Below are positions 1,852-58,752 of a stretch of 64,000 bases of DNA, piece after piece. Under the pieces are notes generated by a model. That model had not been told where the DNA came from, did no database searches, and saw only the letters and a list, made by a program, of their open reading frames with translations. A program made the position numbers and the translations under genes. The stretch spans positions 326,221 to 390,220 of the forward strand of contig JBFMDH010000002.1 in NCBI GenBank assembly GCA_040754075.1, in the 5' to 3' direction. Within the stretch, counting starts at the first letter, position 1, and the number at the start of each line of letters is the position of its first letter. The DNA comes from Acidobacteriota bacterium. Its GTDB lineage: Bacteria > Acidobacteriota > Blastocatellia > UBA7656.

Positions 1852-4434
1852 GTGACAATTTTTGCCGTGAACAAAATCAGACTGGTATCGGTTGGAAAAG
1901 TTATTGCCCTGGTGGTCTTCATTACCGTAGCAGTGGCGCTTGGCGTCTATTTCGTCAAAAAACGCAAACCGCTTGACCTGCCAGCGACGCCGAAAATTCT
2001 CGAAGGCGAAATTGTTGCGGTCTTCAACAACACACGCTACGCGCACGAAGTCGGCGGCAAGGTGCGTTTCGTACTCACCGCCGAAGTTGACAAAGCCTAC
2101 ACCAACGGCGCGCACGAACTTGAAAAAGTGAAGCTCGAATCGTTCGGCAACGAGGGCACACGCAATGATACGGTGACGGCTGACCGCGCCGAAGTCAGTG
2201 ATACCGCAAACCTCAACGCCCTCGAAGCCAAATTTATTTCCAATGTCGTCGTGATCACCAGCGAAGGCGCGACGATCAAGACTCAGTACCTGCATTACGA
2301 CCACGAAAAGAGCGTGATTGATACGCCGGAGTTGGTTGAATTCGACAGCGATAAAGTTTCCGGCACGACGATGGGTGCGATGATTGAAGTCAATGATGAG
2401 CGCGTGCATTTGCTGAAAGATGTTGATCTGACGATTAAACCGACGGCTGAAACCGGTAAAACCAACGCCGATAAATCTGCAAGTGCGAAACCTGAAACGA
2501 CCGAAAGCGATGCCGAACGCGCCGCCCGTAAAGCCGCAAAACGCGCCCGCAAACTCGAACGCAAACGCCAGGCGGCGCTTGCCGCGGCGAAATCGCCGAA
2601 TAAAAACGCGCCTGCTAAAAATCAAAATCAGTCACCGACCGATAATCAATTGTTAGCCGCGCGCAATGCCAAATTGCCGATTCGCATTCGCGCGGTTTCG
2701 GGTCTTTTGGAACGCCAAGACCATCGCGTCGCTTTCAATGACAAGGTCATCGTCACCCAGGGCGCAGATGAAATGCGCGCCAACACCATGCTCGGACTGT
2801 TGAGCGATGATAATAAAATCGAACGCATCGAAGCGCGTGGCAATGCCTATTTGAAACAATCTGAAAAAGCCGAAATCAAATCTTCGGATATGGATTTCTT
2901 TTTTGCCGAACAACGCTTGATTCGCGCGACGGCTACGGGTAGCGCCTTCGCGCGCACCCTCAGCGGTGAACCTGTGAAAGAAGCCCGCGCCGCCAAATTC
3001 GACGCGACCTTTATGCCGGGTGCCAAAGACAGTACGATTGATTCGTTGCAGGCGACGGGCGATGCGACATTGCAGGTTTTTGCGACAGGTTCGTCCACGG
3101 TTGATCGCGAACTTCGCGCCGCCGAAATCAATGTCGCTTTTTTGGAAGGCGCGATGAATACGGCGTTGGCAACCGGCGGCGCTGTGTTACAGGTTCACGC
3201 GCCCAAACCGAAAGATGAAAAAGCCAACCCGACCGAGCGCGAATTGACTGCGAGTCAAGTTACCGCTTCATTTTATCCGGGCGGTAAAAATCTGGCGTTT
3301 GCCGAAGCGACGGAAAACGCCGTAATGAAAGTGACGCCGGTGCGTGCCGAAAAAGGCGCGGATAAAAAGACGATTCGCGCGCCGCAGATGACCGCAGAGT
3401 TTTTTGAAAGTAATAATCGCTTGAAAAATTTCAAAGCCACCAACGGTGTGAAGGTCGAAATTGAAGCCACGGTTGAAAACGCCCATCCATTGCGCACGAC
3501 GACCAGTCGAACGCTCACAGCCGATTTCATCGAAGAGACCCAGGATGTGCAGACGCTTGTGCAGCAGGGCGATTTCAAATATAACGAAGGCGACCGCAAC
3601 GGCACGGCGGAAACCGCAACTTACAACGGGCAAATCGAGATGCTTTATCTGCGCGGCAAACGTCCGATGGTCTGGGACGCCGAAGCCCGCACCCAGGCTA
3701 ACGAAATTGATTACGACCGCAGCAAAGATGAAACCCATGCGCGCGGCGATGTGCGCACGACCTATTACAGTCGCGAAACGGCGGGTGACGCCACCCCTTT
3801 CAAAAATACCAAGTCGCCGGTCTTTATGACGGCTGAAAAAGCTGATGCGCGCAACTCGGAAGGCTATGCCATTTACACGGGCAATGCGCGGGGCTGGCAA
3901 GATAACAATTTTGTCAAAGCCGACCGCATCGAACTTTTTCAAAATGATAAAAAGATGATTGCCACCAGTCGGGTTGAAAGCGCGCTTTATAATGCGAAGA
4001 AAAATAATGACGCCAATCAACAGGAGGTGGTTCCGGGTTTTGCGACCGCCGACAAAATGATTTATTCGGATAAAGAGCGCCTCGTTCATTATGAGGGTTC
4101 CGTGAAAGCGCGACAGGGCACGGACAATATCGAAGCCGCGGTGGTGGATGTTCATTTAATGCAGGAAAGCAATGAAGTCGAAAAGATGATTGCCGAAGGC
4201 GCGGTTGTGTTGACCCAGCCCGGACGACGCGGAACCGGCGATAAAGCGATTTACACATCTGCGGATGGTCGCGCCATTTTAGTAGGAAAAAATGCCAGAG
4301 TTGAAGACGCCGAGAAGGGAACCACAACAGGCGGTCAATTGACTTTCTATAGTCGCGATGATAAGGTCGTTGTGGAGAATCAACAAGGGACAGGGCGCGT
4401 GAAAACGACTCATCGGCTAACCAAAAATAAATAA
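1852..4434 (+). CDS. LPS transport periplasmic protein, single 860-aa ORF with N-terminal TM anchor + LptC-like region, Ala/Lys-rich linker, then LptA/OstA-like beta-jellyroll repeats
   Basis: There is an N-terminal hydrophobic segment, and an OstA-like motif pattern appears after an AKR-rich linker ([30 protein letters not shown]... NAYL). The gene sits immediately upstream of lptB and rpoN, matching the conserved lptC-lptA-lptB-rpoN synteny. Domain assignment is from memory of the families. Confidence 0.6.
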
Positions 4435-4462: not shown

Positions 4463-5605
4463 GTGTCCGTGAGTAAATCACCAGCCAAAAAAAATAGACG
4501 CAGTAAATCCAACCCGACCGCCCCTAATATTAAGCGAAAGAGCGCGCCTGCGCGCTTGATTACGCCTTCGTCGGATTCGCTCATTACGACCCATTTATCT
4601 GAGGAAAATGCGGAAATTCAGGTGGGCGTGTCTGCGGCTACAGATGATTTTGAATCTCTTGCGGCATTACCGGTCAGCGTGAATTTATCTGATGCGTTGA
4701 CGCCGGAAACTGCTGAACAACTTCTGAAACACCCTGTTGAAACAACTGTGAATTTGCAAGCCGAAATTAACCAAACCGAATATGCGCCAGTCGTCATCAA
4801 TGAATTGGTCTTGTCGGAAATCAACGGCAAGCCTGTAGCGAACCGGCAAGTTGGCATCAGCGAAAGCGCCGGATTGCGAGCCTTGAGCGTACTCGGCGTT
4901 GAGCATTTGCGAAAATCCTATCGCAAACGCCCTGTGGTCAATGATGTTTCGCTTGAAATCGTACAGGGGGAAATTGTCGGACTGTTGGGTCCAAATGGCG
5001 CGGGCAAAACCACGATTTTTTATATGATAGTCGGGATCGAACGACCTGATGCCGGCAAGGTTTATCTCGATACCAAAGACATCTCGCGGTTGCCCATGTA
5101 TTTGCGAGCGCGCAACGGCATCAGCTATTTGCCGCAGGAAGCCTCGGTGTTTCGCAAATTGTCGGTTGAAGAAAATATCTGGCTGGTCTTGCAAACCCTG
5201 CCGCTTACGAAAGCTGAGCGCGAACAACGGCTTGAAAGCCTGTTAAATGATTTTGATATTGCCCGCGTGCGTCACACCAAAGCGTATCAATTATCGGGTG
5301 GTGAACGGCGGCGCACAGAAATTGCGCGTTGTCTGGTGATTGAACCGCGATTTATTTTGCTTGATGAGCCGTTTGCCGGTATTGACCCGATAGCGGTGAT
5401 TGATATACAAAAAATATTGAAAAGACTGCGCGAACGCGGCATCGGGGTTTTGATAACCGACCATAATGTCCGTGAGACTCTGGCAATTACCGACAGAGCG
5501 TATATAATCAACGAAGGGAAAATATTCAGAGCCGGAACACCGGATGCGCTGACGCGCGACAAAGAAGTGAAACAAGTTTATTTGGGAGAAAATTTCAGGA
5601 TGTAA
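4463..5605 (+). CDS. lptB: LPS export ABC transporter ATP-binding protein LptB, with ~135-aa N-terminal extension (or start at an internal TTG near 4880)
   Basis: Walker [23 protein letters not shown] signature and Walker [12 protein letters not shown] are present, and the gene follows the lptA-like ORF. The extension is an uninterrupted 140-codon open frame upstream of the conserved LptB N-terminus. Confidence 0.8.
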
Positions 5606-5606
5606 G

Positions 5607-5686
5607 AGTCAGTAGTCAGTAGTCAGTAGTCAGTTCTTAAAACCAAAAATTTACTGACCACCGACGACCGACGACCGACGACCGAT
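5607..5686. terminator. inverted heptamer arrays (AGTCAGT x4 ... CGACCGA x4) forming an imperfect hairpin immediately after the lptB stop; terminator/REP-like
   Basis: gagtcagtagtcagtagtcagtagtcagt, an 18-nt AT-rich spacer, then actgaccaccgacgaccgacgaccgacgaccga. The two arms are partially complementary. Confidence 0.5.
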
Positions 5687-5696
5687 TGGTAGCATT

Positions 5697-7250
5697 ATGT
5701 CAGTTAGACCAAATCTTCAAACCAGCCTTTCGCAGAAATTGGTGCTCACGCCGCAGATGCGTCAACGTATCGAGCTACTGGCGATGACCAAGCTCGAAAT
5801 GGCTGACATGATTACCACGGAAATCACCGCCAATCCTGTGCTCGAAGCCGTCGAACCGGGAGACGCGCCGGATACTTCGATGAACGAAGAGATCGCCTCA
5901 ATCGATGCGACGATTGCCGATTATGCGGCACCTGAAACGCCCGTTCAAAGCACTGAAACCCGCGCGGCAGAATCCTTTGATACGGTTGAGCCTTCTGTCA
6001 CTAATACCGCAACCGAGGCTTCACCTTTTGAGGGCGATACGGAACCTGACCGCGAACGCGATTCTTTTCAGGAAATCGATTTCGGCTCCACTTTTGAAGA
6101 ATATCTCGATCCGGGTTACAAGACCCACGAATATGAAGCGCGCGAAGAGACCTCGTTTGAAAATATGCTGACCCGCCGCCAGTCGCTTTATGAACAATTG
6201 ATGTGGCAATTGCATCTGGTGGAAGCGCCTAAAGAGGTGATTCGCGCCGGCGAAGCGATTATCGGCAACCTTGATGAAAACACCGGCTTTCTTGATGCCA
6301 CGATTGCAGAGATTGCGGCGATGGGTCCGTGGTCAGAAGAGGTCGTGCAACAGGCTTTGCACATCATTCAGCGATTAGACCCGGTCGGTGTGGCGGCTGC
6401 TAATGTTCGCGAATCGTTAATGATTCAACTCGAATATTATGGATACGGCGAACGCCTGGCATATCGGATGGTGCGCGACCATTTTGAAAATTTGCAAACC
6501 CATAAACTGCCCGACCTCGCCAAGAACCTGGGGGTTTCAGTTGATCAGGTGCTCGCCGAAATGGCGATTATTAAAAAGCTCGACCCCAAACCCGGTCGCA
6601 AATATTCCGCCGAAGAAGCGCAACCCGTGGTTCCCGAAGTGACCATCGAAAAAGTCGGTGATGATTATGTCATCCGCTTTGAAGATGACGGGGTGCCGGG
6701 GTTGAGAATCAATCGCACCTACCGGCAGATGATGGAATCCAAAGACGCCTCGAAAGAGACCCGCGATTACATCAAAGAGCGTTTTCGTTCGGCAGTCGAT
6801 TTACTGAAAAATATCGAACATCGACGGCAGACGATTTACCGCGTTTGCCAGTCAATCGTTGAACGTCAGCGCGAATTTCTCGACAAAGGCACAGAGCATA
6901 TCAAGCCGATGATGCTCAAAGATATTGCCGAAGACATCGGTATGCACCTCAGCACCGTTTCGCGCGTTGTCAATCGCAAATATGTCAATACGCCGCAGGG
7001 CGTTTATGAACTGCGAAGGTTTTTTACCGAAGGCATGCGCTCGGATACCGGTGAAGATGTTTCGACGCGGGTGCTCAAATTGAAGATTAAAAAAATGATT
7101 GAGGAAGAAGATTCGCACAACCCGATTACCGACGACGAAATTGCCAAGCGCGTCGCCAAAGAAGGCGTCAAATTGAGCCGCCGCACGGTTGCCAAATATC
7201 GCGACCAGATGAATATTCCCGGCTCGCGCGAACGTCGGTCAATTGTCTGA
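5697..7250 (+). CDS. rpoN: RNA polymerase sigma-54 factor
   Basis: A Gln/Leu-rich N-terminus, an acidic region, a core-binding region, an HTH and the C-terminal RpoN box (ARRTVAKYR) are all present. The gene is in the conserved lpt-rpoN-hpf context. Confidence 0.9.
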
Positions 7251-7386
7251 GTTTTTCGTCTTTCCTTGTTCTTTGACCGCCTCTCAATCAGCGAGGAGTA
7301 AGCATGTTGCAGAATTGAGTTGTTGAAAATCGCTGCCTACTGCCTACTGCCTGCCATCTACTTCAAAGAAAGGAGCATATGCTGTT

Positions 7387-7920
7387 ATGGAATTTGAATT
7401 CACAGGTCGTCATATTGAAGTAACTCCTGCAATTGAGAAACTGGCACAAAAAGAGTTGCAAAAACTTAATAAAGTTCTGGATTCCGCGCCCATGCGGACG
7501 CACATCATCCTGTCATCCGAAAAACATCGCAAACGCGCCGAGATTGTTATACGTTGGCGTGATACGGTCTTTACCGGGATTGCCGAAAATAACGATGTCA
7601 AGCAATCTATCATCCTCGCGGCAACCAAAGTTACAAAACAAATTTTCAAGGTCAAAGAAAAATTTCAGTCCGCAAAACGCAATCGTCAACCGGTTAAAGA
7701 AGTCGCCCCCGTGCCCGGTGGCATTATCGAAGCCGCACCACCTGCGCCACGCATCATTCCGGCGCGTCGCTATAAAGTGAAACCCATGACTCCCGAAGAG
7801 GCGGCTTTGCTGGTCGCCGATTCTGAAGATTTATTTATCGTCTTTCGCGATGCCGAAACCAACAAGGTCGGCGTCCTCTACAAACGCACAGATGGCAACT
7901 TCGGTTTGATTGAACCTTAA
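7387..7920 (+). CDS. hpf: ribosome hibernation promoting factor (long form)
   Basis: An N-terminal S30AE/YfiA domain (MEFEFTGRHIEVTPAIE...) is followed by a C-terminal dimerisation extension. The gene lies directly downstream of rpoN. Confidence 0.85.
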   Translation: MEFEFTGRHIEVTPAIEKLAQKELQKLNKVLDSAPMRTHIILSSEKHRKRAEIVIRWRDTVFTGIAENNDVKQSIILAATKVTKQIFKVKEKFQSAKRNRQPVKEVAPVPGGIIEAAPPAPRIIPARRYKVKPMTPEEAALLVADSEDLFIVFRDAETNKVGVLYKRTDGNFGLIEP

Positions 7921-7923
7921 CGC

Positions 7924-8002
7924 GGTAGCCAGTAGCCGGTAGCCGGTAGTCAGTCGTAATGGCGAATAACCGGCTTCCGACCACCGACTGCCGACTACTG
8001 AT
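7924..8002. terminator. inverted heptamer arrays (GGTAGCC-type ... CCGACTR-type) between hpf and rapZ
   Basis: ggtagccagtagccggtagccggtagtcagt, a spacer, then ccggcttccgaccaccgactgccgactactga. Architecture matches the element at 5607. Confidence 0.45.
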
Positions 8003-8004
8003 TT

Positions 8005-8880
8005 ATGGCTGTTTCCGTTGTCATTATTACCGGGATGAGTGGCGCAGGGATGTCTTCTGCGCTCAAAGTGTTTGAAGATTTAGGCTATTTCGCGGTTGAT
8101 AATCTTCCGGTGCAACTCATTCCCACATTCGTCCGCCTGTGTGATGAATCCATGGAAATCAACCGCACAGCTTTTGTCGTTGATGTGCGGTCGCGCGATT
8201 TGGTTAATCTCTTTCCGCAAATTCATCAGGAGTTACTCGCCAAAGACGTTGATGTCACGGTGGTGTTTCTGGAAGCCGATACTGATGTCTTGCTCAGGCG
8301 TTACAGCGAAACCCGCCGACCGCATCCGCTGCCGGAAGGCACGGTTTCTGCCGCAACCGAACAGGAGCGCGAAATGCTCGCGGAAATTCGCACTCTTGCC
8401 GATGTGATTATTGATACGTCGGAACATACCGTGCACACCTTGCGCGATGTCATCAAAGAGCGGTTTGCCGAAAAAGGTCAGGCAAAAGATTTGAGCGTCA
8501 CCATCGCCTCATTCGGATTCCGCCACGGCATTCCGCGTAGTTCCGACATGATTTTCGATGTCCGGTTTTTGCCAAATCCGCATTTCATCCCTGAACTCAG
8601 AGCCTATACCGGGCGTGATGCGCCGGTGATTGAATATCTGGAAAACGAATCCGAAGTCGAAGAGGCGATTTATCGTTTCGTTGATTTACTGGCGTATCTA
8701 TTGCCGCGTTATCAACGCGAAGGCAAAAGTTATTTGACCATTGGCATCGGTTGTACAGGCGGGCGGCATCGTTCGGTGATGATTGCTGAAGCTTTGCATA
8801 AACAATTGAATGCACGCGGTTATAAAACCCGTGTGATGCATCGCGATATTGATAAAGACCAGCAACGATATAAAGCATGA
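8005..8880 (+). CDS. rapZ: RNase adapter protein RapZ (P-loop NTPase YhbJ family)
   Basis: N-terminal P-loop ITGMSGAGMS, overall RapZ length (291 aa) and position in the rpoN cluster. Confidence 0.88.
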   Translation: MAVSVVIITGMSGAGMSSALKVFEDLGYFAVDNLPVQLIPTFVRLCDESMEINRTAFVVDVRSRDLVNLFPQIHQELLAKDVDVTVVFLEADTDVLLRRYSETRRPHPLPEGTVSAATEQEREMLAEIRTLADVIIDTSEHTVHTLRDVIKERFAEKGQAKDLSVTIASFGFRHGIPRSSDMIFDVRFLPNPHFIPELRAYTGRDAPVIEYLENESEVEEAIYRFVDLLAYLLPRYQREGKSYLTIGIGCTGGRHRSVMIAEALHKQLNARGYKTRVMHRDIDKDQQRYKA

Positions 8881-8887
8881 AAGGAGC

Positions 8888-9038
8888 TAGGATTCAGGAT
8901 ACAGGATACAGGATTCAGGGAGAAGAAACGATGAAGGCTGAACGATGAACAACTACAAAACGCTTTCGGTTCATCGTTCAGCCTTCCTACTTCATACTTT
9001 CCTTTCCCTGAATCCTGTATCCTGGCTCCTGTATCCTG
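8888..9038. repeat. ~150-bp long imperfect palindrome: outer CAGGATA/GGATTCAGG heptamer arrays plus inner perfect 17-bp stem
   Basis: Left arm is ggattcaggatacaggatacaggattcaggg...gaaggctgaacgatgaac. Right arm is gttcatcgttcagccttc...ccctgaatcctgtatcctggctcctgtatcctg. Inner stem is 8934-8950 / 8969-8986. Confidence 0.6.
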
Positions 9039-9045
9039 AAAGCTG

Positions 9046-9506: not shown

Positions 9507-10586
9507 GTGCATTTTGTTAAAGACTCAAACATGAGCGAAACCGATAACTTGCAATCCCTGAGCAACAATCCGCAATCCGCAATCCGCAATCCGCAATTGA
9601 ACGGTTCGCAATCCGCAAGTGAAGCGTCTGCTATTCTCGAAATCAAAAATCTGCGAGTCTACTTTCATACCGAAGATGGAATTTTAAAAGCCGTTGATGG
9701 GGTGAATCTGCAAATGCGCGCAGGTGAAACTTTGGGACTGGTTGGCGAATCGGGTTGCGGCAAATCGGTCACGGCATTTTCGATTCTGCAATTGCTGCCC
9801 GTGCCGCCCGCCAAATACGAAGGCGGCGAGATACGTTTTCAAGGCGAAAATTTACTCGCGAAAAATGAAAAAGAATTGCGACGGGTGCGCGGCAATCTGA
9901 TTTCCATGATTTTTCAAGAGCCGATGTCGTCGCTCAATCCCATCATGTCCATCGGCAAACAAATCACCGAAGCCATCATTGAGCATCAGAAAACGTCGGA
10001 AGCTGAAGCGCGGCGCCTGGCGGTTGAAATGCTCAGGCGCGTCGGCATCCCTTCGCCGGAAACCCGATTTGATGAATACCCGCACCAGATGTCGGGCGGC
10101 ATGAAACAGCGCGCCATGATCGCGATGGCATTGGTTTGTAAACCGCAATTGCTGATTGCCGATGAACCGACCACGGCGCTCGATGTGACGATTCAAGCGC
10201 AAATCCTTGAACTTTTAAGAGAACTGCAAGGCGAATTCAATATGGCGGTTTTGCTCATCACTCATGATTTGGGTGTGGTTGCCGAAACCTGTGATAATGT
10301 CGCGGTGATGTATGCGGGCAAGATTGTCGAATACGCCAGCGTCAATGATTTGTTCGAGCGCCCGAAACATCCGTACACACACGGACTGTTTCGTTCATTA
10401 CCTTCGATAGCAGAAAAGAAAGCGACGCTTGACGTGATACCCGGCGCAGTGCCGAGTCCTTTGGATTTCCCCACCGGTTGTCGATTTCGCAATCGCTGTC
10501 CGCTGGCGCAAGATGAATGCAAAACCGAACCTGCGCTACGCGAACTCGCGCCGCAGCATGTCGTCGCCTGTCATTTCGCCGAATAA
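9507..10586 (+). CDS. oligopeptide/dipeptide-type ABC transporter ATP-binding protein (OppD/DppD-like), orphan
   Basis: Walker [24 protein letters not shown] signature, Walker [13 protein letters not shown], and the C-terminal oligopeptide-ABC extension with its Cys cluster. The annotated N-terminus contains a CAATCCG x4 heptamer array ([10 protein letters not shown]), so the real start may be downstream, near LEIKNLRV. Confidence 0.85.
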
Positions 10587-10624: not shown

Positions 10625-10665
10625 CACTGACCGCCCCTGAATCCTGATTCCTAAATCCTGCTTTC
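10625..10665. terminator. small GC hairpin (ggcggtca c tgaccgcc) plus a single CTGAATCCTGATTCC heptamer arm between convergent oppD-like and guaB genes
   Basis: Palindrome ggcggtcactgaccgcc followed by cctgaatcctgattcctaaatcctg. Confidence 0.4.
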
Positions 10666-13057: not shown

Positions 13058-14515
13058 ATGTCGAACGAATTACTGAGAGCGTTGCCATCTATCGAAAAAT
13101 TGCTCGCAAGTTCTGCGGCAGTGAAACTCTCTGCAACCTTGAGCCGCGACCGCGTTCGTGATTTGTTGCGTGAAATCGTCGACGAATTGCGCGAACAACT
13201 GGTTCAGGATTCAGGATTCAGGATTCAGGATTCAGGAAAGGGAAGCCCGGAGTCTGGCGTCGATTTAGAAGCAGAGATTACGCAAAGGCTTGAGAGCAAA
13301 GCGAGGGTTGTGATGCAACCTTCGCTCAGGCGCGTGATAAACGCAACCGGGGTGATTATTCATACCAACTTGGGACGCGCGCCGCTTGCCCGAGAGGCGA
13401 TTGCCGCAATTGCAGACGCCGCTTCGCATTATGCAAATCTCGAATACGATTTGCTTGCGGGCAGACGCGGCAAACGCGAAATGCATTGTCAGCAGTTGCT
13501 GGCGCGACTCGTTGGCAGCGAGGACGCGATTGTCGCCAACAATTGCGCGGCGGCGGTGCTGCTGGTATTAAACACCCTTGCCGAAGGCGGCGAAGTGATT
13601 GTTTCGCGTGGCGAGTTGATTGAAATCGGCGGCAGTTTTCGTATTCCCGAAGTGATGGAAAAAAGCGGCGCAAAACTTCGCGAAGTCGGCACCACCAATC
13701 GCACACGCATCAGCGATTATGCAAGTGCCATTAACGAACATACGCGGTTGATTTTACGTGTGCATCCGTCGAATTATCGCGTTATTGGATTTACTGAACG
13801 CCCGACGCTGGCAGAAATCGCCGAATTATCAGAACGCGCAGGCATCCCGGTATTTGAAGATTTGGGTTCAGGATGTTTGATTGACCTTGCGCCTTACGGC
13901 GTCAAAGATGAGCCGGTGGTGAATGAATCTTTCAAAGCTGGGATTTCGGTTGCGGCATTTAGCGGCGATAAAATGTTAGGCGGGCCGCAAGCCGGTATCA
14001 TTGCCGGAACCCGCGCGATTATTGAACGGGTGAGAAAGAATCCATTAATGCGCGCCTTGCGGGTTGACAAGATGACTTATGCGGCGCTTGAAGCGACTTT
14101 GAGAATTTATGAACGCGGCGCTGCTACTCGCGATGTGCCGGTGATTCGCGCGATGGCAATGAACGAAAATGAAATTGCCGGACGCGCCGAAGCATTTTGT
14201 CAGCGGTTGATTGCCGCAACCGGCAAGCGTTTGCACATCGCGCTCGAACGCGGCGCATCGGTAATTGGTGGCGGTTCGGCTCCCGAAGTGAAATTGTCCA
14301 CGGTGCTGGTGACCATTCAATCAGCAGAATTATCTGCGGCAACCATTGAAACGCAGTTGAGAAATCAACCGATTCCGATTGTTGCACGAACTGAACGTGA
14401 CCGCGTGGTGATTGATTTACGAACCGTCGCGCCAGATGAAGAGGCGATGATTATTGAGTCATTGATGGGGCTCGCGCAACCTACCCAGCCAGGCGCGGCA
14501 TCAGTAGAAACATAG
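13058..14515 (+). CDS. selA: L-seryl-tRNA(Sec) selenium transferase
   Basis: SelA N-terminal LRALPSIEKLL motif, the PLP fold-type I core, and the lysine in FSGDKMLGGPQAG. A 4-unit CAGGATT heptamer array sits in frame at 13203-13232, encoding QDSGFRIQDSG. Confidence 0.88.
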   Translation: MSNELLRALPSIEKLLASSAAVKLSATLSRDRVRDLLREIVDELREQLVQDSGFRIQDSGKGSPESGVDLEAEITQRLESKARVVMQPSLRRVINATGVIIHTNLGRAPLAREAIAAIADAASHYANLEYDLLAGRRGKREMHCQQLLARLVGSEDAIVANNCAAAVLLVLNTLAEGGEVIVSRGELIEIGGSFRIPEVMEKSGAKLREVGTTNRTRISDYASAINEHTRLILRVHPSNYRVIGFTERPTLAEIAELSERAGIPVFEDLGSGCLIDLAPYGVKDEPVVNESFKAGISVAAFSGDKMLGGPQAGIIAGTRAIIERVRKNPLMRALRVDKMTYAALEATLRIYERGAATRDVPVIRAMAMNENEIAGRAEAFCQRLIAATGKRLHIALERGASVIGGGSAPEVKLSTVLVTIQSAELSAATIETQLRNQPIPIVARTERDRVVIDLRTVAPDEEAMIIESLMGLAQPTQPGAASVET

Positions 14516-14578: not shown

Positions 14579-16240
14579 ATGCGTTTAACACTTATTTATT
14601 TCTTGCAGGCGCAACCGGCGAAAGTTTCGTGGTTGCTTTGGACGGTTGGCATTTTCTTCTTTCTTGCGGGACTCGCCTTGCTGGTTTATTTGATGATTAA
14701 CCGCAAGCGGGGCGGGGTGGAAGATGAACCGGAGATTAAAAAATTATTGACCGATGAACCGCCAATCGTCACCGAACAGGAAAGCGTTCTGGAATCTGCG
14801 CCTGATGAAATTCTTGAGGCAGAGATTACCGCAAAAAAAAACGCGCTTGATGAGGTTCCGTCACCGCACAAATACTGGAGCGATGAAATTGCCGGTGAAT
14901 CAAGCGTTGATGAATCGCCCGAAGCGGTAGCCGTTGAATCTTCTCCATCATTTGAGGAAGCGCCGTCCGAAGTTGAATCTGCCACGTTGCCTGTTGAACC
15001 GGAAAATGTGAAAGCCGAAGCGTCAACACCCGCGCAAGCAGCCTTGATAGACGAAGCAAATGTTACATTAGCCCATCAAAATGAAACTCAGACTGCGCCC
15101 GATGAAACGCTTATTCTGTCGAGTTCGTCTGCGCCGCCAGCGGTTGATGAAACCGCGATGCTAACGTCTGCGCCCGAACCTGAGATTGCCGCAAATGAAG
15201 AAACCCCCTTTAGTGATGAAGTATGGGAAGAGTTAAAAGCCGAGCCGACTTCAACGCTTACCAGTGAGCGACAAGCGCCGGTGACGACCCAATATGCCGC
15301 ATTTGAGGACAGCGCGACAAAACCATTGGCAAGCGTCATCAGCGAAGCCTCGGCGCGCGTTGAGCCGCCCGCTGCACAGGAAAATTTCACGCCGCCCCGC
15401 CCGCGCCGCGAGCCGTTTGAACCGCCACGCATCGAGCCGCTGATTCCGCAAAGCGAACCCGCGCCCTCACCTGCACAGACGCGAACCATCGCGCCCTTGC
15501 GCACCAAAGAAACGCGAATTGATAGAGAGCCGGTTTTTGAAAACGCGAAACCGCAGCCTGTGCCGGTTTTCAATCCGCAAACCGAAGTGGTGACCGCGCA
15601 CCCCAAGGCGGACTGGCACCCTGCGCCAGCCAATCGCAAAGTTGCAGGAGCCGTTCTGGGGTTGCCGGTCGAAGCCAGCGATGCGCCACTGGTAATTGGC
15701 AAACCCGTCATTGCTGAAGAGGAAATCGGCGTCACCGGATTTACCCATTATGGCGAACCGACGGATACCGGCGACACGAGTCGTGGTGGGTTGATTACCT
15801 TTTTAATTGTTTTGTTAATAATGGGCGGCGGTGTGGCAGCCTATTTCAAAATTCCTTCATTTCATAATCGCGTCGATGCGGTGCTGGCGCGATTGCGCAC
15901 AGGGCAAGCGCCCGCTCCTGCGGTTGAAACCCCGCGAGCGCAAATCATTCCTTCGCGTAACCCGGAAGTGAATAAAAATATCGTCAAAGCCCGAGGCGCG
16001 GTGTTGAATATTTCACAGGAAACGCTCGAAGAGTTATCGGTTGAAATTACTTTTTATCGCGGCGAAAACCCCATTGAAGTTCGTCAGGTCGCCATCACCC
16101 CCGCTACCCTCGAACCCAGCCAGCAGGGAACTTACGAGTTTGAATATGATGGTAGCAAAAGCGGCGGCTTTGCCCGCTACAGCGTCACCAAACTGCTCGG
16201 CAAAAATGGCGAAATCAAATTTACTTCGGCAAAACAATAA
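14579..16240 (+). CDS. membrane-anchored low-complexity (Pro/Glu/Ala-rich) protein with two TM segments and a ~130-aa C-terminal globular domain
   Basis: TM at the N-terminus (WLLWTVGIFFFLAGLALLVYLMI), a second TM near residue 400, and a long acidic proline-rich spacer. No family assigned. Confidence 0.45.
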   Translation: MRLTLIYFLQAQPAKVSWLLWTVGIFFFLAGLALLVYLMINRKRGGVEDEPEIKKLLTDEPPIVTEQESVLESAPDEILEAEITAKKNALDEVPSPHKYWSDEIAGESSVDESPEAVAVESSPSFEEAPSEVESATLPVEPENVKAEASTPAQAALIDEANVTLAHQNETQTAPDETLILSSSSAPPAVDETAMLTSAPEPEIAANEETPFSDEVWEELKAEPTSTLTSERQAPVTTQYAAFEDSATKPLASVISEASARVEPPAAQENFTPPRPRREPFEPPRIEPLIPQSEPAPSPAQTRTIAPLRTKETRIDREPVFENAKPQPVPVFNPQTEVVTAHPKADWHPAPANRKVAGAVLGLPVEASDAPLVIGKPVIAEEEIGVTGFTHYGEPTDTGDTSRGGLITFLIVLLIMGGGVAAYFKIPSFHNRVDAVLARLRTGQAPAPAVETPRAQIIPSRNPEVNKNIVKARGAVLNISQETLEELSVEITFYRGENPIEVRQVAITPATLEPSQQGTYEFEYDGSKSGGFARYSVTKLLGKNGEIKFTSAKQ

Positions 16241-16245
16241 AAAAT

Positions 16246-16376
16246 CGGTAGCTGGTAATCGGTAGCCGGTAATGGGTAGCTGACAGACGATAATTGGTGG
16301 TTTGGGAAACGGCATAACTTTTATCAGAAATTCCTGACTACCGGCTACCGAGTACCGGTTACCGACCACCGACCAC
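16246..16376. repeat. inverted heptamer arrays (CGGTAGC/GGTAATC ... CTACCGR/TACCGAC) downstream of 14579..16240
   Basis: cggtagctggtaatcggtagccggtaatgggtagctgaca, a 45-nt spacer, then cctgactaccggctaccgagtaccggttaccgaccaccgacc. Confidence 0.5.
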
Positions 16377-16560
16377 CCGCTGAAAACTAAACTGTTGAAG
16401 TGCATTTTGGTTGAACCTATAATACCAACGCTGAAACTGTCGCTAGCTTAACCCGTCGTCAATCTCTGAGTTTGAAGAAGGCTGCCCCTTTGCACTGAAC
16501 CTCGTCAACTTTCATTGATGGTATAAACAGTTTACTAACCCAGATTTCAAAGAGGCAAAA

Positions 16561-17769
16561 ATGTCAGCAAGCATTGACCAACTATTAACCCTTGCCTGTA
16601 GCAAGGGGGCATCGGATTTACACATCAAAGCCGGGAGCTTTCCATTTCTACGAATCAACGGTGACCTTCAAGCGATGGTCGAAGCGCAAAGACTTTCAGC
16701 CGAAGATACGCTTAACATGGCTTTTTCAATGATGAATAACCGGCAGAAACAACGCTTCAGTGAAAATTCGGAAATCGACGTGGCTTATGCGGTGCAAGGG
16801 TTAGGGCGTTTCCGCTGCAATATCTTTCAACAACGCGGCACCGTCGGTATGGTGCTGCGCGTCATTCCGACGACCGTTCGTACCATCGAAGAATTACGCC
16901 TGCCGACGGCGATTAATCATTTATCCGATAATTCGCGCGGTCTGGTGCTGGTTACGGGAACCACAGGCTCCGGCAAATCCACCACGCTGGCAGCCATGAT
17001 TGATTACATCAACCGCATGCGCACAGGGCACATTGTCACCATCGAAGACCCGATTGAATTTTTGCATCGCGACAAAAAAGCTTATGTCAATCAACGCGAA
17101 GTCGATGTCGATACCCGCAGTTTTTATGAGGCGTTGCGCGGCGCATTGCGACAAGACCCGGATGTTATTCTGGTCGGTGAAATGCGTGACCACGAAACCA
17201 TTGAAACGGCTTTGATGGCAGCCGAAACCGGACACCTGGTTTTATCAACGCTGCACACCCTGGATGCGACGGAAACCATTCAACGCATCGTTTCGAGTTT
17301 TCCGCCGCATCAGCAGAATTCCATTCGCCTGCAACTGGCGAGCGTCCTGCGTGGGGTGATTTCCATGCGATTGGTGCGCGCCGCTGACCCGACGCTTGGT
17401 CGTGTGCCTGCCGTCGAAGTGATGGTCGTAACCCCTTACATACGCGATTGCGTGGTCTATGCTGAAAAGACCCATTTGATTCGTGACGCGATTGCTCAAG
17501 GAACTTCACAATACGGCATGCAGACTTTTGATCAATCGCTATTTGATTTGTATTCACAAGGGTTGATAACGTATGAAGAGGCGTTGGCAAGTTCGACCAA
17601 TCCCGATGAATTTAAATTGCGGGTTTCCGGGATTCGTTCAGCCGCCGATCAGGCGCGCGACGATATGGAACGTTCGCGTAAACGCACGGCATCACTTGAA
17701 GGCGCAAAACCTGAAACCAAACAGTTCGTCAATTGGCTTTTAGAAGGAAAAGAACAGATTATCCGATAA
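16561..17769 (+). CDS. pilT: type IV pilus retraction ATPase PilT/PilU family (with ~40-aa C-terminal extension)
   Basis: Walker A GTTGSGKST, Asp box, Walker B ILVGEMRD, His box LSTLHT and the AIRNLIRE-like motif (TIQRIVSSF). Confidence 0.85.
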   Translation: MSASIDQLLTLACSKGASDLHIKAGSFPFLRINGDLQAMVEAQRLSAEDTLNMAFSMMNNRQKQRFSENSEIDVAYAVQGLGRFRCNIFQQRGTVGMVLRVIPTTVRTIEELRLPTAINHLSDNSRGLVLVTGTTGSGKSTTLAAMIDYINRMRTGHIVTIEDPIEFLHRDKKAYVNQREVDVDTRSFYEALRGALRQDPDVILVGEMRDHETIETALMAAETGHLVLSTLHTLDATETIQRIVSSFPPHQQNSIRLQLASVLRGVISMRLVRAADPTLGRVPAVEVMVVTPYIRDCVVYAEKTHLIRDAIAQGTSQYGMQTFDQSLFDLYSQGLITYEEALASSTNPDEFKLRVSGIRSAADQARDDMERSRKRTASLEGAKPETKQFVNWLLEGKEQIIR

Positions 17770-44626: not shown

Positions 44627-46036
44627 TCATTTCCTGGCAGCGGGTTTAATGTAGAGCACTGTGCGGTTGGCGGTGCCGAAATATTTTTTTGCAGCGTTGC
44701 GCACCTGCTCCGGTGTGACTGCGAGATAACGCTCAAGTTCCGTGTTAATGAGTGACGGGTCATTGTCAAAGAGCGTGTATTCGGCAAGCATCAAGGCGCG
44801 ACCAAGCGCCGTTTGCACACTGGTGTATTCGCCGTCTTCACCGCCAACGAACTGTCCCAGCCGGTATTGATTTTTAACCTTCGCGAGTTCTTCGCGACTC
44901 ACCCCTGCGGATTTGATGCGTTCAAATTCGGCTTCGATGAGCGATTGAATTTGTTCGGGCTTGGCATCTTGTTTGAGAATCGAAAAGACCGTAAGCGCCG
45001 AAGGTCCGCGCCGTTCATCCATCATGCCCTGCACTTCGAGCGCCACCTGTTTGTCTTTCACCAAGGTTTGATAGAGCCTGGCGCTTTCGCCATCAAACAG
45101 TATGGATTTAAGCATGGCTATCGGATAAGCGTCGGGCGCGCGCCGCGGCGGCAGTTTCCAGGCAATGGCAATCGCAGGGGTTTCGGCGTGCGTGTCTTCG
45201 GCAAGGTTTTTTTGCAACACGGTTTCAAAAGGTTCCGTGACATCGACAGCAGGCGGCGCGGGTTGTTTCGCTATGGTTGAAAAATATTTGCGCACCAGCG
45301 TTTCCGCCTGTGCCAAATCAATGTCACCGGCAATCGCCAGCACCGCGTTATTCGGCGCGTAATAGATTTTGAAAAAATTCTTCACATCGGTGATGGTTGC
45401 GGCGTCGAGGTCTGCCATTGAACCGATGGTCGAATGGGCGTTTGCCCAGTTTTTGAAAATCGCTTCGTCCATCTTTGTCAGCGCCGGCCAGTACGCTTGA
45501 TTATCCACGTTCAAACGTTTCTCTTCCTTAACCGCCTCTTTTTGATTCTGCAAATTGGCGGGCGTAATTTTCAAACTGCGCATGCGGTCGGATTCCAGCC
45601 ACAAAGCCATTTCCAATTGATTGGATGGCAGAAATTCGTAGTAGTTGGTGTAGTCGGTGTGCGTCGAACCATTCAAAAAACCGCCGTTATTTTCGACATA
45701 TTTGAAATGCCCGGCTTTTTCGATGTTTTCCGAACCTTGAAACATCATATGCTCGAAAAGGTGCGCAAACCCCGAACGCCCTTTAACTTCGTTGCGCGAC
45801 CCGACATCGTAATAAACCGCTACGGCGACAACCGGAGCCGCGTGGTCTTCCGAAAGCACCACGCGCAAACCGTTTTCGAGTTGAAATTGTTTAAACGGCA
45901 CATTGAACGATTGCGCGAAATGAACAGAGATAGATGGGATAAACAGGATGTAAACAAGCGAAAAGCAAACCGCAAGCTTGCATAAATCCGGTTTTGCCTT
46001 TTGCCTTTTGCCTTTTGCCTTTTGCCTTAATTTCAT
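44627..46036 (-). CDS. M16-family zinc peptidase, catalytic subunit
   Basis: HLFEHMMFQG is an inverted zincin HxxEH, there is a downstream Glu, and a signal peptide is present. The Lys-rich N-region is encoded by a TTTTGCC x5 heptamer array (45996-46030). Confidence 0.8.
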   Translation of the reverse strand: MKLRQKAKGKRQKAKPDLCKLAVCFSLVYILFIPSISVHFAQSFNVPFKQFQLENGLRVVLSEDHAAPVVAVAVYYDVGSRNEVKGRSGFAHLFEHMMFQGSENIEKAGHFKYVENNGGFLNGSTHTDYTNYYEFLPSNQLEMALWLESDRMRSLKITPANLQNQKEAVKEEKRLNVDNQAYWPALTKMDEAIFKNWANAHSTIGSMADLDAATITDVKNFFKIYYAPNNAVLAIAGDIDLAQAETLVRKYFSTIAKQPAPPAVDVTEPFETVLQKNLAEDTHAETPAIAIAWKLPPRRAPDAYPIAMLKSILFDGESARLYQTLVKDKQVALEVQGMMDERRGPSALTVFSILKQDAKPEQIQSLIEAEFERIKSAGVSREELAKVKNQYRLGQFVGGEDGEYTSVQTALGRALMLAEYTLFDNDPSLINTELERYLAVTPEQVRNAAKKYFGTANRTVLYIKPAARK

Positions 46037-52492: not shown

Positions 52493-53113
52493 TTGAATAC
52501 ATTGCCTGAAATACAAATGAATAAAGAAGAAGTTGATAAAAACGAAAATTCGCCGGAGCCATCGCAAACCATCCGCAATCCGCAATCTGCAATCTGCAAT
52601 TCTCCGATTCCTGCGGCAGCGGTAGCGTTGGTGCGAGATACCGCGCAGGGGATTGAAGTCTATTTGAATAAACGTCCGGCGCATTTTCGTTATTATCCCG
52701 GCGCCTTTGTTTTTCCCGGCGGGCGGGTTGATGAAACTGACGGCGACATACAGGTTACCGCCTGTCGCGAAGTGCGCGAAGAAATCGGCGTTGAGATTCA
52801 TCCCGAAGGTCTGGCTTTGCTCAGAGACATTTACACCAACCCGAAAGCCGGGCCGGTCTATCATATGAAAACCTTCGCCTATGAAATCATCGGCGAGATG
52901 CCGACAGTTTTGAACACGGAAGAAGTAGACGGCGAAATCTGGATTGGCGCCAAAGAAGTTCTCAGTTTACGCGAAACGATTTTTACGCCCTATCAGGTGA
53001 GCGCGGCAATTTATACCATCTCGCGATTTGATAAAGTCTTGGAGTTGCTCGCGGCTTTGCAACACGGACACATCAACGACCAGTATCTGCCGCACAGGGA
53101 TTATTGGCTTTAA
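52493..53113 (+). CDS. NUDIX hydrolase (start likely downstream of annotated; N-terminus contains GCAATCC/GCAATCT heptamer array)
   Basis: Nudix box GGRVDETDGDIQVTACREVREEIGV. Confidence 0.7.
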   Translation: MNTLPEIQMNKEEVDKNENSPEPSQTIRNPQSAICNSPIPAAAVALVRDTAQGIEVYLNKRPAHFRYYPGAFVFPGGRVDETDGDIQVTACREVREEIGVEIHPEGLALLRDIYTNPKAGPVYHMKTFAYEIIGEMPTVLNTEEVDGEIWIGAKEVLSLRETIFTPYQVSAAIYTISRFDKVLELLAALQHGHINDQYLPHRDYWL

Positions 53114-53250
53114 GAGTCCGTAGTCCGTAGTCTGTAGTCCGTAGCAGAAAACGAAGCTTTTGAAATTGGCTCCTGTAGCCGGTTTCGAGGCAACGCTGCT
53201 ACTGACTACTGACGACTGACTACCGACTACTGACTACCGACTACTGATGC
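53114..53250. repeat. inverted heptamer arrays (GTCCGTA x4 ... CTGACTA/CCGACTA x6) between NUDIX gene and DUF58 gene
   Basis: gagtccgtagtccgtagtctgtagtccgtagcag, a spacer, then ctactgactactgacgactgactaccgactactgactaccgactactga. Confidence 0.5.
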
Positions 53251-54569: not shown

Positions 54570-54642
54570 GAAAGGCAAAAGGCAAAAATCAAAGGGCAGA
54601 AGTGAATTGCGCTTATGAAAGCAGCGTTCAAAAAATATAAGT

Positions 54643-56005: not shown

Positions 56006-56196
56006 GGGGTTTCAATTGAATAAATAAAAATTTGAATTGCGCTTCAAGCCATATGCCTATCGCAACCATCAGGCAAGAATGCAATCCGCTTGCTCAACCT
56101 GTTAATTGTTGGCAGAGACCGCTTGTGCAATTTGAGTGGTTAGAGACTACTTCCTCAACTTTTTACTTTTGCCTTTTGATTTTTGCCTTTTGCCTT

Positions 56197-56967
56197 TTAC
56201 TTAAACGTTCCGTGTTTGCCTTCGCCTTGCGCGAAACGTCGAGCGCCCGCCACCGATTCACCGGAATCGAGAATCGCTTTACCGAGGGTGAATTCGTTTC
56301 TGATGGCTTCGTCCCAACTCAAATCCCACTGCTCATAAGCCGATTGTCTATCCGAACGCATACAGGCTTGCGGAAAGGCGGCAATCTGTTGAGCAACTTT
56401 GATGGCTTCAGCTAAAGCTTCGCCGCTTTCAACCAGACGATTGACGAGTCCCATTCTCAAAGCTTCTTCACCGGTTACGCCGCGGCCCGTCAAAATCAAA
56501 TCCATCGCATTGCTATGACCGATAAGCCTCGGCAAACGAATCGTGCCGAGGTCAATGAGCGGCACGCCGAAGCGGCGACAATAAACGCCAAATATCGCGT
56601 CGCGCGCCGCCACACGCATATCGCACCACAGGGCTAATTCCAAACCGCCCGCAACCGCGAAGCCTTCAACCGCCGCAATCACCGGTTTCGTGAGCCGCAT
56701 TCGGGTTGGTCCCATCGGCGCGAGTTCGCTGTGCTCATCGTTGTCGCGTTTGTCGCCTCCGGCAACCGCTTTCAAATCTGCGCCCGCGCAAAAGACGCCC
56801 TCTGCGCCGGTAAACACTGCGACATTCAATGAATCGTCGGCGTCGAATTTGGCAAAGGCGTCAAAGAGTTCAATCGCGGTGTCGGAATCAACCGCGTTGC
56901 GAACCTGCGGGCGGTTGATGGTCACAATAGCAATAGAATCCTGCGTTTCAAAAATGACGTTTGGCAT
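56197..56967 (-). CDS. enoyl-CoA hydratase/isomerase (crotonase family)
   Basis: Oxyanion-hole motifs AVEGFAVAGGLELAL and FTGAEGVFCAGADLK. Confidence 0.85.
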   Translation of the reverse strand: MPNVIFETQDSIAIVTINRPQVRNAVDSDTAIELFDAFAKFDADDSLNVAVFTGAEGVFCAGADLKAVAGGDKRDNDEHSELAPMGPTRMRLTKPVIAAVEGFAVAGGLELALWCDMRVAARDAIFGVYCRRFGVPLIDLGTIRLPRLIGHSNAMDLILTGRGVTGEEALRMGLVNRLVESGEALAEAIKVAQQIAAFPQACMRSDRQSAYEQWDLSWDEAIRNEFTLGKAILDSGESVAGARRFAQGEGKHGTFK

Positions 56968-58624: not shown

Positions 58625-58752
58625 CAGAAGTCAGGAGTCAGAATCCAGAAGTCAGAATAATTCGATTGGCTAAATTTTAAAGATAAACCTCATTCTCAAC
58701 TAAAGGCGCATCGTCTATACTTCTGACTTCTGATTTCTGACTCCTGGATTCT
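58625..58752. repeat. inverted heptamer arrays (AGAAGTC/AGGAGTC ... TTCTGAC/CTCCTGG) in the divergent region upstream of holB
   Basis: cagaagtcaggagtcagaatccagaagtcagaa, a 62-nt AT-rich spacer, then ttctgacttctgatttctgactcctggattct. Confidence 0.55.

Follow-up and report, generated by a model that had tools for sequence, protein, structure and literature searches.

The stretch of DNA analysed here, which we call the window, comprises 64,000 nucleotides (nt) of contig JBFMDH010000002.1 from the Acidobacteriota (class Blastocatellia) assembly GCA_040754075.1 (positions 326,221 to 390,220), and it carries a family of tandem 7-nt repeats that sit mainly at gene boundaries, at six sites as two inverted arrays that can pair into a long hairpin. 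The genes follow in the order LptC/LptA-fusion gene, lptB, rpoN, hpf, rapZ, EIIA-man gene, a gene for an oligopeptide-type ABC ATPase, IMPDH (on the minus strand), selA and more housekeeping genes; the RpoN protein is 90% identical to that of a Blastocatellia metagenome-assembled genome (MAG), L001. For comparison, we collected 160 related loci (numbered with an L) with RpoN against species-representative genomes and with RapZ against metagenomes, which together with the window make up 1.9 Mb. An initial annotation, made from the sequence alone, had described seven heptamer sites, the first of them behind a gene that it correctly labelled lptB. Arrays were detected with Tandem Repeats Finder and by direct reading of the sequence, and by both routes all seven sites are present with the coordinates and units reported. 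They are part of a total of 14: six paired sites (S1-S6) and eight single arrays, which include the half-site of the initial annotation and seven arrays that it had overlooked (at 7333, 9566, 13203, 45992, 52571, 54571 and 56158). The period itself is unmistakable. At one fixed score threshold for periods 2-15, the window contains 11 arrays of period 7, 10 of period 14 and none of any other period, against 0-0.1 in 20 dinucleotide shuffles.

The densest series of sites runs from lptB to the EIIA-man gene. The 5′ arm of S1 (5607-5634, four copies of AGTCAGT; Tandem Repeats Finder gives 4.0 copies over the same interval) begins 2 nt past the lptB stop codon (5603-5605), and its 3′ arm (5652-5686, ACTGACC and then three to four copies of ACCGACG; Tandem Repeats Finder: 5656-5685, GACGACC, 4.3 copies) ends 11 nt upstream of the rpoN ATG (5697). 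The gap between rpoN and hpf holds a single array (7333-7352, 2.9 copies of CTGCCTA) 5′ of the hpf Shine-Dalgarno motif AAAGGAG; its unit is the one that builds the hpf-rapZ hairpin in relative L161. At S2, the 5′ arm (7923-7956, GGTAGCC/AGTAGCC units) begins 3 nt past the hpf stop codon (7918-7920) and the 3′ arm (7966-8000, CCGACCA/CCGACTG/CCGACTA units) ends 4 nt upstream of the rapZ ATG (8005), with Tandem Repeats Finder intervals of 7925-7954 and 7969-7995. At S3, AAGGAGCT stands between the rapZ stop codon (8878-8880) and the 5′ arm (8885-8921, AGGATTC/AGGATAC units), and the 3′ arm (9004-9044, CCTGAAT/CCTGTAT units) ends 1 nt upstream of the EIIA-man ATG (9046); Tandem Repeats Finder places these arrays at 8889-8919 and 9007-9040. 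A second hairpin is nested inside S3 (8933-8986), with a perfect 18-bp stem in which GAAGGCTGAACGATGAAC (8933-8950) pairs with GTTCATCGTTCAGCCTTC (8969-8986) and whose 5′ side is heptamer-periodic too (AACGATG, according to Tandem Repeats Finder). The spacers had been described as AT-rich, which does not hold for all of them. The interval 8881-9045 is the whole S3 site with its inner hairpin. Two nested arm pairs, built from different units, likewise occupy the rpoN-hpf gap of relative L081 (5203-5351). Nesting of this kind suggests that the elements grow via new arrays added at the apex.

The remaining paired sites lie further downstream. S4 follows a 553-amino-acid open reading frame (ORF; 14579-16240) that has no Pfam match at E ≤ 0.001: its 5′ arm (16243-16282, alternating AATCGGT/AGCTGGT/AGCCGGT units with a 14-nt super-period) begins 3 nt past the stop codon of this ORF (16240), its 3′ arm spans 16336-16377 (GACTACC/GGCTACC/GAGTACC/GGTTACC/GACCACC units), and both intervals are also those of Tandem Repeats Finder. 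Downstream of S4, the next gene starts at 16561, and there is a sigma-70-like promoter match at 16395-16423. The 5′ arm of S5 (53115-53147, 4.3 copies of AGTCCGT) begins 2 nt past the stop codon of a NUDIX gene (53113), and its 3′ arm (53196-53246, seven copies of CTACTGA/CTACCGA) abuts the ATG of a DUF58 gene (53247); the corresponding Tandem Repeats Finder intervals are 53115-53144 and 53199-53247. S6 is the sole pair in the window between divergent genes. Its 5′ arm (58625-58657, CAGAAGT/CAGGAGT/CAGAATC units) lies 27 nt from the start of a minus-strand SpoIIM-like gene (58598), its 3′ arm (58719-58752, ACTTCTG/ATTTCTG/ACTCCTG units) ends where the DNA polymerase III delta-prime gene (holB) starts, Tandem Repeats Finder returns the same two intervals, and the arms are 88% complementary.

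Single arrays occur both between and within genes. The half-site (10628-10665, minus strand; CCTGAAT/CCTGATT/CCTAAAT units, called by Tandem Repeats Finder as one array at 10636-10660) has no partner arm and is flanked by the IMPDH stop codon (minus strand, 10665) on one side and by a canonical intrinsic terminator on the other. Further arrays are found between the stop codon of an aminotransferase gene and the start of an M16 peptidase gene, both on the minus strand (45992-46028, 5.3 copies of TTTTGCC, which reads (GGCAAAA)n on the minus strand), right behind the DUF58 stop codon at 54569 (54571-54602, a degenerate array of 4.6 AAAGGCA copies), and at the 3′ end of a minus-strand enoyl-CoA hydratase gene (56158-56202, ACTTTTT/TTTTGCC units). 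Three plus-strand arrays lie inside ORFs: in the N-terminal tail of the oligopeptide-type ABC ATPase, before the ABC domain (9566-9597, 4.6 copies of CAATCCG), in the SelA linker between N-terminal and core domains (13203-13237, five copies of TTCAGGA), and in the N-terminal tail of the NUDIX protein, before the NUDIX domain (52571-52600, 4.3 copies of ATCCGCA). These arrays are in frame, always single, built from stop-free units and confined to N-terminal tails or a domain linker; the one in selA encodes the 7-residue repeat QDSGFRI-QDSGFR at about residues 49-60. In L001, the orthologous ABC ATPase has a different unit, four copies of ATCCAAC, at the matching N-terminal position. Synteny between the window and L001 is broken beyond IMPDH, and the comparison with L001 therefore stops short of S4 and the SelA array.

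Some features of the genes themselves deserve mention independently of the repeats. The lptB ORF (4463-5605) has a possible extension of about 140 codons 5′ of the ABC domain, up to a GTG at 4463, and gene callers also give products of 366-376 amino acids for lptB in relatives. In the 860-amino-acid ORF that precedes it (1852-4434), an LptC domain is joined to three stretches of the LptA/LptD_N type, which makes the product a fused periplasmic Lpt bridge protein of unusual size. The IMPDH of the window has 507 amino acids and no intein; in relative L162, the called IMPDH product (6626-8876, minus strand) exceeds 940 residues and has Intein_splicing and LAGLIDADG_3 Pfam hits, which indicate a putative inserted intein with a homing endonuclease. 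An Rfam scan of the whole window on both strands returned no match at the gathering score, and no tRNA or tmRNA gene was found in a scan of the window.

Do the arms of the paired sites indeed pair? At the six sites, they are 76-89% complementary (78% at S1), and the pairing follows the repeat: 71-84% of positions match in every in-phase register (multiples of 7), against at most 34-53% out of phase, so the stems can slip by whole units. Folded as RNA, each site forms one long hairpin on both strands, with z-scores of -3.1 to -13.7 relative to dinucleotide shuffles, and the paired arms and hairpins of the initial annotation thus stand. The whole S3 gap reaches -92 kcal/mol (z -13.7). The poorest sense-strand folding is that of S1 and S2 (z -3.4 and -3.1 as RNA; -1.7 and -1.6 as DNA), which fold much better on the minus strand because their A·C mismatches on the plus strand become G·U pairs on the minus strand; for S1, this means -39.5 instead of -23.5 kcal/mol as RNA and z -4.8 instead of -1.7 as DNA. 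In the wider sample of related loci, 16 of 23 co-directional pairs are richer in G in the 5′ arm and in C in the 3′ arm, a trend that is not significant (p = 0.09). At S3, S5 and S6, in-register complementarity exceeds that after a shift by one unit, albeit weakly, and unit variants mirrored between arms are at most suggestive of palindromic copying; at S1, homogeneity within each arm is 95-100%, yet the two arms differ from each other.

Stable stem-loops directly behind stop codons could act as Rho-independent (intrinsic) terminators, one of the two functions that the initial annotation had proposed, and S4, where 184 nt of spacer and a promoter-like match follow, could mark the end of a transcription unit. 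However, none of the six 3′ arms is followed by a T-run, and in a scan for consensus terminators no sense-strand hit falls on any of the six sites; the sole hit within an element (5683-5656, minus strand) is a stem inside the 3′ arm of S1, antisense to lptB and rpoN. The geometry is also far outside that of terminators, with stems of 25-60 bp and loops of 18-80 nt. Three of the sites, moreover, lie inside the lptB-rpoN-hpf-rapZ-EIIA string, where 1-11 nt separate their ends from the following start codon, and S6 separates divergent genes. A textbook terminator is present elsewhere in the window, downstream of IMPDH (10638-10616, minus strand; AGGGGCGGTCAGTGACCGCC followed by TTTTTGTTT), where it abuts the half-site array, showing that this genome uses ordinary terminators alongside the heptamer hairpins. 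Termination is therefore a very unlikely role for these elements.

The phenomenon is not restricted to the window. Across the 1.9 Mb, period 7 accounts for 69 arrays, against 0-9 at periods 4-12. This sample has its limits: genes were called crudely, as longest ORFs, the loci cluster around a single operon, and orthology makes some of the sites non-independent. Where two arrays lie at most 150 nt apart, their units are reverse complements at 6/7 or more positions in 17 of 22 cases, compared to 2.6% of random unit pairs, while their direct similarity is at background level. When we searched within 220 nt around each of 90 arrays for an inverted match of at least 14 of 18 bases, 60 (67%) had an inverted partner and only 7 a direct one; in control regions, the count was 1 of 87. 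The inverted pair, and not the single array, is thus the dominant architecture, and these numbers bear out the comparison with cyanobacterial short tandemly repeated repetitive (STRR) heptamers that had been drawn from the window alone. The same holds for the proposed placement at gene boundaries, both in the window and in the related loci: 65 of the 90 arrays (72%) lie outside longest-ORF calls, although only 8.4% of the sequence is free of such calls (p about 1e-49), and most arrays that do overlap an ORF call are 0-200 nt away from an ORF start that was over-extended, or at the 3′ end of an ORF. Of 27 inverted pairs with clear flanks, 23 separate co-directional genes and one separates divergent genes, compared to 69% and 15% of background junctions. 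Typically, 0-6 nt separate the 5′ arm from the stop codon of the preceding gene, and 0-30 nt separate the end of the 3′ arm from the start of the following one.

Among genomes, the distribution is strongly over-dispersed: 68 of 97 loci of at least 8 kb are free of arrays, and eight have three or more (chi-square p 5e-20). The description of the repeats as genome-specific is hence right insofar as they are patchy among genomes; it fails in that the trait recurs in Blastocatellia, Pyrinomonadaceae, Bryobacteraceae and Terriglobia, with partly shared units. The vocabulary of units is large, with at least 66 distinct canonical units in 111 arrays. Even so, identical units occur at independent sites in 50 site pairs, where composition-matched shuffles give 6.7 ± 2.6; sharing amounts to 5.8% of site pairs within a locus, 0.8% between loci and 0.09% after shuffling, and the between-locus share is partly due to orthology, for example among L010, L012 and L041. 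Within the 64 kb of the window there are four to five unrelated unit families, such as a GTAG-N3 pattern common to S1, S2, S4, S5 and the array at 7333, GGATT common to S3 and the arrays at 10636, 13203, 9566 and 52571, and GGCAAAA common to those at 45992, 54571 and 56158.

A restricted, partly genome-specific vocabulary with an excess of identical units, together with GTAG or GGATT cores common to several units of the window, is what one might see if a trans-acting protein with a 7-nt footprint bound the arrays, be it a single-strand binder of the cold-shock-domain or S1 type or a DNA-binding protein, with the inversion reflecting binding geometry. Binding of S1, Csp or CsrA has been proposed by MacGregor for the TAACTGA arrays described below (PMC4679880), which counts in favour of this idea. 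However, the sheer number of units, and the presence of several unrelated families in one window, ill suits a single sequence-specific binder, and single-strand binding does not require the arms to be consistently complementary. We regard protein binding as improbable.

The recurrence of unit families at non-orthologous sites, within and across genomes, could also stem from transposition of non-autonomous mobile elements into intergenic gaps, similar to miniature inverted-repeat transposable elements or to repetitive extragenic palindromic (REP) sequences and their RAYT transposases. The sites indeed behave as discrete insertions of about 100 nt and share the palindromic architecture of REPs. 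REPs, however, are copies of a single conserved sequence per genome, about 35 nt long and distributed by RAYT transposases, unlike the heptamer elements, which as wholes share neither sequence nor conserved termini and whose loops and units vary by site. Reading of the flanks revealed no duplicated bases, and hence no target-site duplications, at S1, S2, S3 and S5. No transposase was found among the 23 of about 55 window proteins that were scanned against Pfam, a scan that included no search aimed at RAYT or transposases. A mobile origin of this type has little probability in our view, slightly less than protein binding.

A further comparison is that of orthologous gaps. In the window and five relatives, with RapZ identities to the window of 85% (L001), 84% (L161), 79% (L162), 77% (L081) and 74% (L082), hairpins with heptamer-periodic arms occupy nearly every lptB>rpoN, rpoN>hpf, hpf>rapZ and rapZ>EIIA gap, and a further relative, for which we have gene coordinates only, shows gaps of 101-144 nt at the lptB-rpoN-hpf-rapZ-EIIA junctions. 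The units in these gaps are replaced entirely: between hpf and rapZ, the window uses GGTAGCC, L001 GGTCGTC, L161 GTAGGCA, L162 GGTCGGT, L081 AAGTAAA and L082 AAGGCAG, units that are unrelated between genomes, yet in each the 3′ arm is complementary. The position of the elements is thus long-lived and their sequence short-lived, while the arms stay complementary. Gaps with arrays are also much longer than those without, with medians of 117.5 versus 23.5 nt for rapZ>EIIA and 132 versus 32 nt for rpoN>hpf. In most array-free species, only 0-20 nt separate the rapZ stop codon from the EIIA start, often as 'taa-AAGG...-ATG', and such short junctions are probably translationally coupled. Because the array-free gaps are so short, the elements are additions of about 100 nt to short junctions.

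How fast does this turnover proceed? When the window is aligned with L001, identity is 50% at four-fold degenerate sites, 38% in the rapZ>EIIA hairpin and 71% in the lptB>rpoN hairpin, the last value including the loop and 12 nt upstream of the ATG; low sequence complexity inflates the alignment identities of the hairpins. Directly upstream of the rpoN ATG, a stretch of about 12 nt, (A)TTGGTAGCATT (window 5686-5696; L001 702-713), is identical in both genomes and contains no Shine-Dalgarno motif; this conserved stretch may be a translation-initiation or regulatory element. Conservation of the loop despite replacement of the arms, compared for L006 against L010 and L012, is not significant (identity 0.60 versus a null of 0.52 ± 0.05). 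The initial annotation had called the arrays potential hotspots of slippage. Between species, copy number and units indeed turn over completely; at the strain level, the comparison consists of one pair, L162 and L163, from independent samples (JGI 3300045319 and Logan SRR23702543), which are identical over 4,916 nt across lptB-rpoN-hpf-rapZ with all hairpins included. The two are the same strain and as such uninformative on repeat instability. A search for RapZ homologues of 85%-100% identity returned nothing apart from the MAG the window comes from, and exact look-ups of Hpf, EIIA and RapZ matched no contigs.

Copy-number differences between species, and tandem repeats that adjoin start codons or lie in N-terminal coding regions, are also features of phase-variable (contingency) loci, where the neighbouring genes are turned on or off as the copy number changes. 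The flanking genes, however, are core housekeeping genes (lptB, rpoN, hpf, rapZ, selA, holB), an essential gene would go out of frame through a 7-nt insertion or deletion within its ORF, and the L162 and L163 samples are identical across all four hairpins. Phase variation has likewise been rejected by Rehm et al. for the heptamer repeats of Xanthomonas and Nostoc (PMC4692102), and for the acidobacterial elements it is the least credible of the explanations considered here.

In one of the gaps, the insertion appears to have left a trace of the original junction. Right after the rapZ stop codon, AAGGAG(Y)T is conserved in the window (8881-8888), L161 (2084-2094) and L162 (4877-4887), where it sits 5′ of otherwise unrelated hairpins, with the EIIA ATG just 3′ of the stem. 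Judged from its sequence and position, AAGGAG(C/T)T looks like the EIIA Shine-Dalgarno motif, split from its ATG by the inserted hairpin, and folding of this hairpin would bring AAGGAG within roughly 10-17 nt of the ATG; that the motif is conserved is a hint that folding matters. A Shine-Dalgarno motif in the position downstream of the hairpin is found in 0 of 3 rapZ>EIIA gaps with arrays versus 3 of 3 without, among the few orthologues whose start is exactly aligned, while hpf retains its motif with or without arrays. Split ribosome-binding sites have been proven experimentally for genes 38 and 25 of phage T4 (PMC3014915). The rapZ>EIIA gaps of the window, L161 and L162 resemble them in having AAGGAG 5′ and the ATG 3′ of a hairpin; they differ in the size of the intervening structure, 16-17 nt in T4 and 70-160 nt in the acidobacterial hairpins, and in that the latter are known from sequence alone.

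But is there any function at all? The elements could be a neutral by-product of a lineage-specific replication or repair bias that causes frequent 7-nt slippage and inverted duplication, with the resulting palindromes being tolerated and functionless at both the DNA and the RNA level. Such a bias would suit the patchy distribution with its array-rich minority of loci, the gaps of only about 25 nt in related species, the lack of a favoured strand in folding, the single arrays inside ORF tails and linkers, and the pair between divergent genes. It would also fit the general picture attributed to Mrazek (2007) in the summaries of PMC4692102 and PMC4679880, according to which heptamers are the most abundant long simple-sequence repeats in most genomes and polymerase slippage is the sole cause proposed for their excess. 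On the other side, the expanded gaps persist at all four consecutive junctions in six to seven relatives that are close to saturation at synonymous sites, an argument whose premise is the usual bacterial bias toward deletion. Neutrality also has to contend with the complementarity that the arms keep through full unit turnover, with an S1 hairpin more conserved than four-fold degenerate sites, and with the under-representation of divergent gaps (1 of 27 pairs versus 15% of junctions). We see a neutral, mutation-driven origin as a serious rival that ranks below the explanation we prefer and is rather unlikely to be the full account, although clearly more probable than the alternatives discussed so far.

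The explanation we prefer, with modest confidence, is that these are STRR-like palindromic heptamer elements, built by slippage, which act, if at all, as REP-like stem-loops between cistrons. Each arm would be a tandem 7-nt array that grows, shrinks and homogenises by replication slippage, and either selection for folding or strand switching templated by the hairpin would keep or restore the complementarity of the arms. Elements between co-directional genes span the gap from stop to start and would thus be transcribed into mRNA, where, being transcribed within operons, they would form stem-loops of 20-40 bp between cistrons. In enterobacteria, the stem-loops of REPs and of bacterial interspersed mosaic elements (BIMEs) are known exonuclease barriers. 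By analogy, the likeliest effect of the heptamer hairpins would be that of a barrier to 3′-to-5′ exonucleases and of an element that determines processing or stability of the cistron before it. A REP-like role in mRNA stabilisation was the second function put forward in the initial annotation, and it is plausible. In addition, the folded hairpin would hold the stop codon of the preceding gene, together with the Shine-Dalgarno motif in one gap, near the downstream start, so that translational coupling could survive the insertion.

Several observations count against such a function. The role at the RNA level is one that we infer by analogy, and selection on the mRNA strand would predict better folding of the sense strand, the opposite of what we see: S1 and S2 fold better as antisense, and there is no sense-strand preference among the co-directional pairs, in which the sense strand folds better in just 9 of 23. 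S6 lies between divergent genes, where neither transcript need hold both arms. Relatives manage with gaps of about 25 nt, making the hairpins dispensable for the operon, and whatever is inserted into a tiny gap will end up next to the stop and start codons, so that this adjacency is weak evidence of function. Only three related genomes have the conserved Shine-Dalgarno motif on the 5′ side, each in its rapZ>EIIA gap; the AAGGAG of L001 is part of the loop. Finally, our loci surround a single operon, and those of their sites that are orthologous do not count as independent.

We would like to place the acidobacterial elements into the context of known repeats. Among the closest are the cyanobacterial STRRs, among which hairpins made of 7-bp repeats have been described between hupS and hupL, with transcript stabilisation or translational coupling as proposed roles (PMC2670836). 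Common to both are tandem 7-nt units of several types per genome that are dispersed in intergenic regions, including those between cistrons, and are able to form hairpins. The organisation as hairpins, which the initial annotation had taken to set its elements apart from STRRs, is therefore no distinction, and convergent pairs are known from Xanthomonas too (PMC4692102). What differs is the host phylum and the units: the canonical STRR1 (CCCCAGT), STRR2 (TTGGTCA) and STRR3 (CAACAGT) units do not occur as tandem arrays in the window or the 160 loci, the closest match to a cyanobacterial unit being GTGGTCA in L041 (6/7 to STRR2). As neither the canonical units nor a cyanobacterial host are present, we file the elements as STRR-like and not as STRRs proper. 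For the acidobacterial arrays, the inverted pair is also quantified as the dominant form.

The GGGAATC arrays of Xanthomonas, with 70-75 convergent pairs per genome and no identified role, and the GGGGA(C/T)T repeats of Nostoc (Rehm et al. 2015, PMC4692102) are alike in many respects: arrays of about four heptamer units, a strong intergenic bias, convergent pairs, proximity to housekeeping genes, gaps shared by related species with varying length and sequence, and rarity between divergent genes. Unlike the essentially single, G-rich and G-quadruplex-capable unit of Xanthomonas, the acidobacterial units are diverse and mostly do not form G-tracts, so the quadruplex explanation does not carry over; none of the units of the window contains a G3 tract, and GGGAATC tandems are sporadic in our sample (only L015, L037 and L080). 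Two to six copies of TAACTGA directly precede start codons that lack a canonical ribosome-binding site in marine Beggiatoaceae, Cyanobacteria and Bacteroidetes (MacGregor 2015, PMC4679880). These arrays are similarly patchy across phyla, and their unit is found in our sample as well: an 8-copy TTGATAA/CTGATAA/CTGACAA array in L021 (9880-9937), a Pyrinomonadaceae-like MAG, contains the exact TAACTGA unit, and the CTACTGA of the S5 3′ arm matches it at 6/7. In Beggiatoa, however, there are 169 direct sets and one indirect set of this single unit (PMC4679880), whereas inverted pairs of many units dominate in the Acidobacteriota. With REPs and BIMEs, the elements have in common the intergenic location, often between cistrons, the imperfect palindromes, the dispensability for the operon and, presumably, transcription into stem-loops; they differ in having no shared whole-element sequence, in arms that are internally tandem-repetitive, and in that only the 7-nt unit families recur.

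In our literature search, we found no report of heptamer repeats in Acidobacteria; heptamers receive no mention in a 2025 survey that covers short tandem repeats throughout the tree of life, and a 2026 paper on 3′ stem-loops contains nothing relevant to them. The acidobacterial elements are real and statistically solid and are not categorically new. New is the quantitative picture of inverted pairs as the default, of positional persistence with full unit turnover, and of insertion into tight cistron junctions.

There is also a more far-reaching explanation, which we judge unlikely, about midway in probability between a neutral origin and termination. The repeats of Acidobacteriota, Cyanobacteria, Xanthomonas, Beggiatoaceae and Bacteroidetes could represent one actively generated class, in which the palindrome is selected because it keeps, once folded as RNA, the stop codon or Shine-Dalgarno motif close to the start, so that the elements could invade tightly coupled cistron junctions and leave translational coupling intact. 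If this were true, a transferable trans-acting factor, or a replication or repair activity with a 7-nt step, should exist only in heptamer-rich genomes; it would write and homogenise the arrays and so explain the patchy distribution, the partly shared units (ACTGA, GGATT and GTAG cores) and the homogenisation within genomes.

In practical terms, the sites will mislead terminator predictors, operon callers and start-codon assignment in acidobacterial MAGs, and they are candidate spots for assembly errors. The excess of heptamers in bacterial genomes was noticed nearly two decades ago, and both the 7-nt period and its function are still unexplained (PMC4692102, PMC4679880). The data presented here extend the phenomenon to the Acidobacteriota, a major and poorly studied phylum of soil bacteria, and place three constraints on any explanation: the inverted arrangement is the default; the elements persist at their junctions while their units are replaced and their arms stay complementary; and they are additions of about 100 nt to junctions of 0-30 nt.

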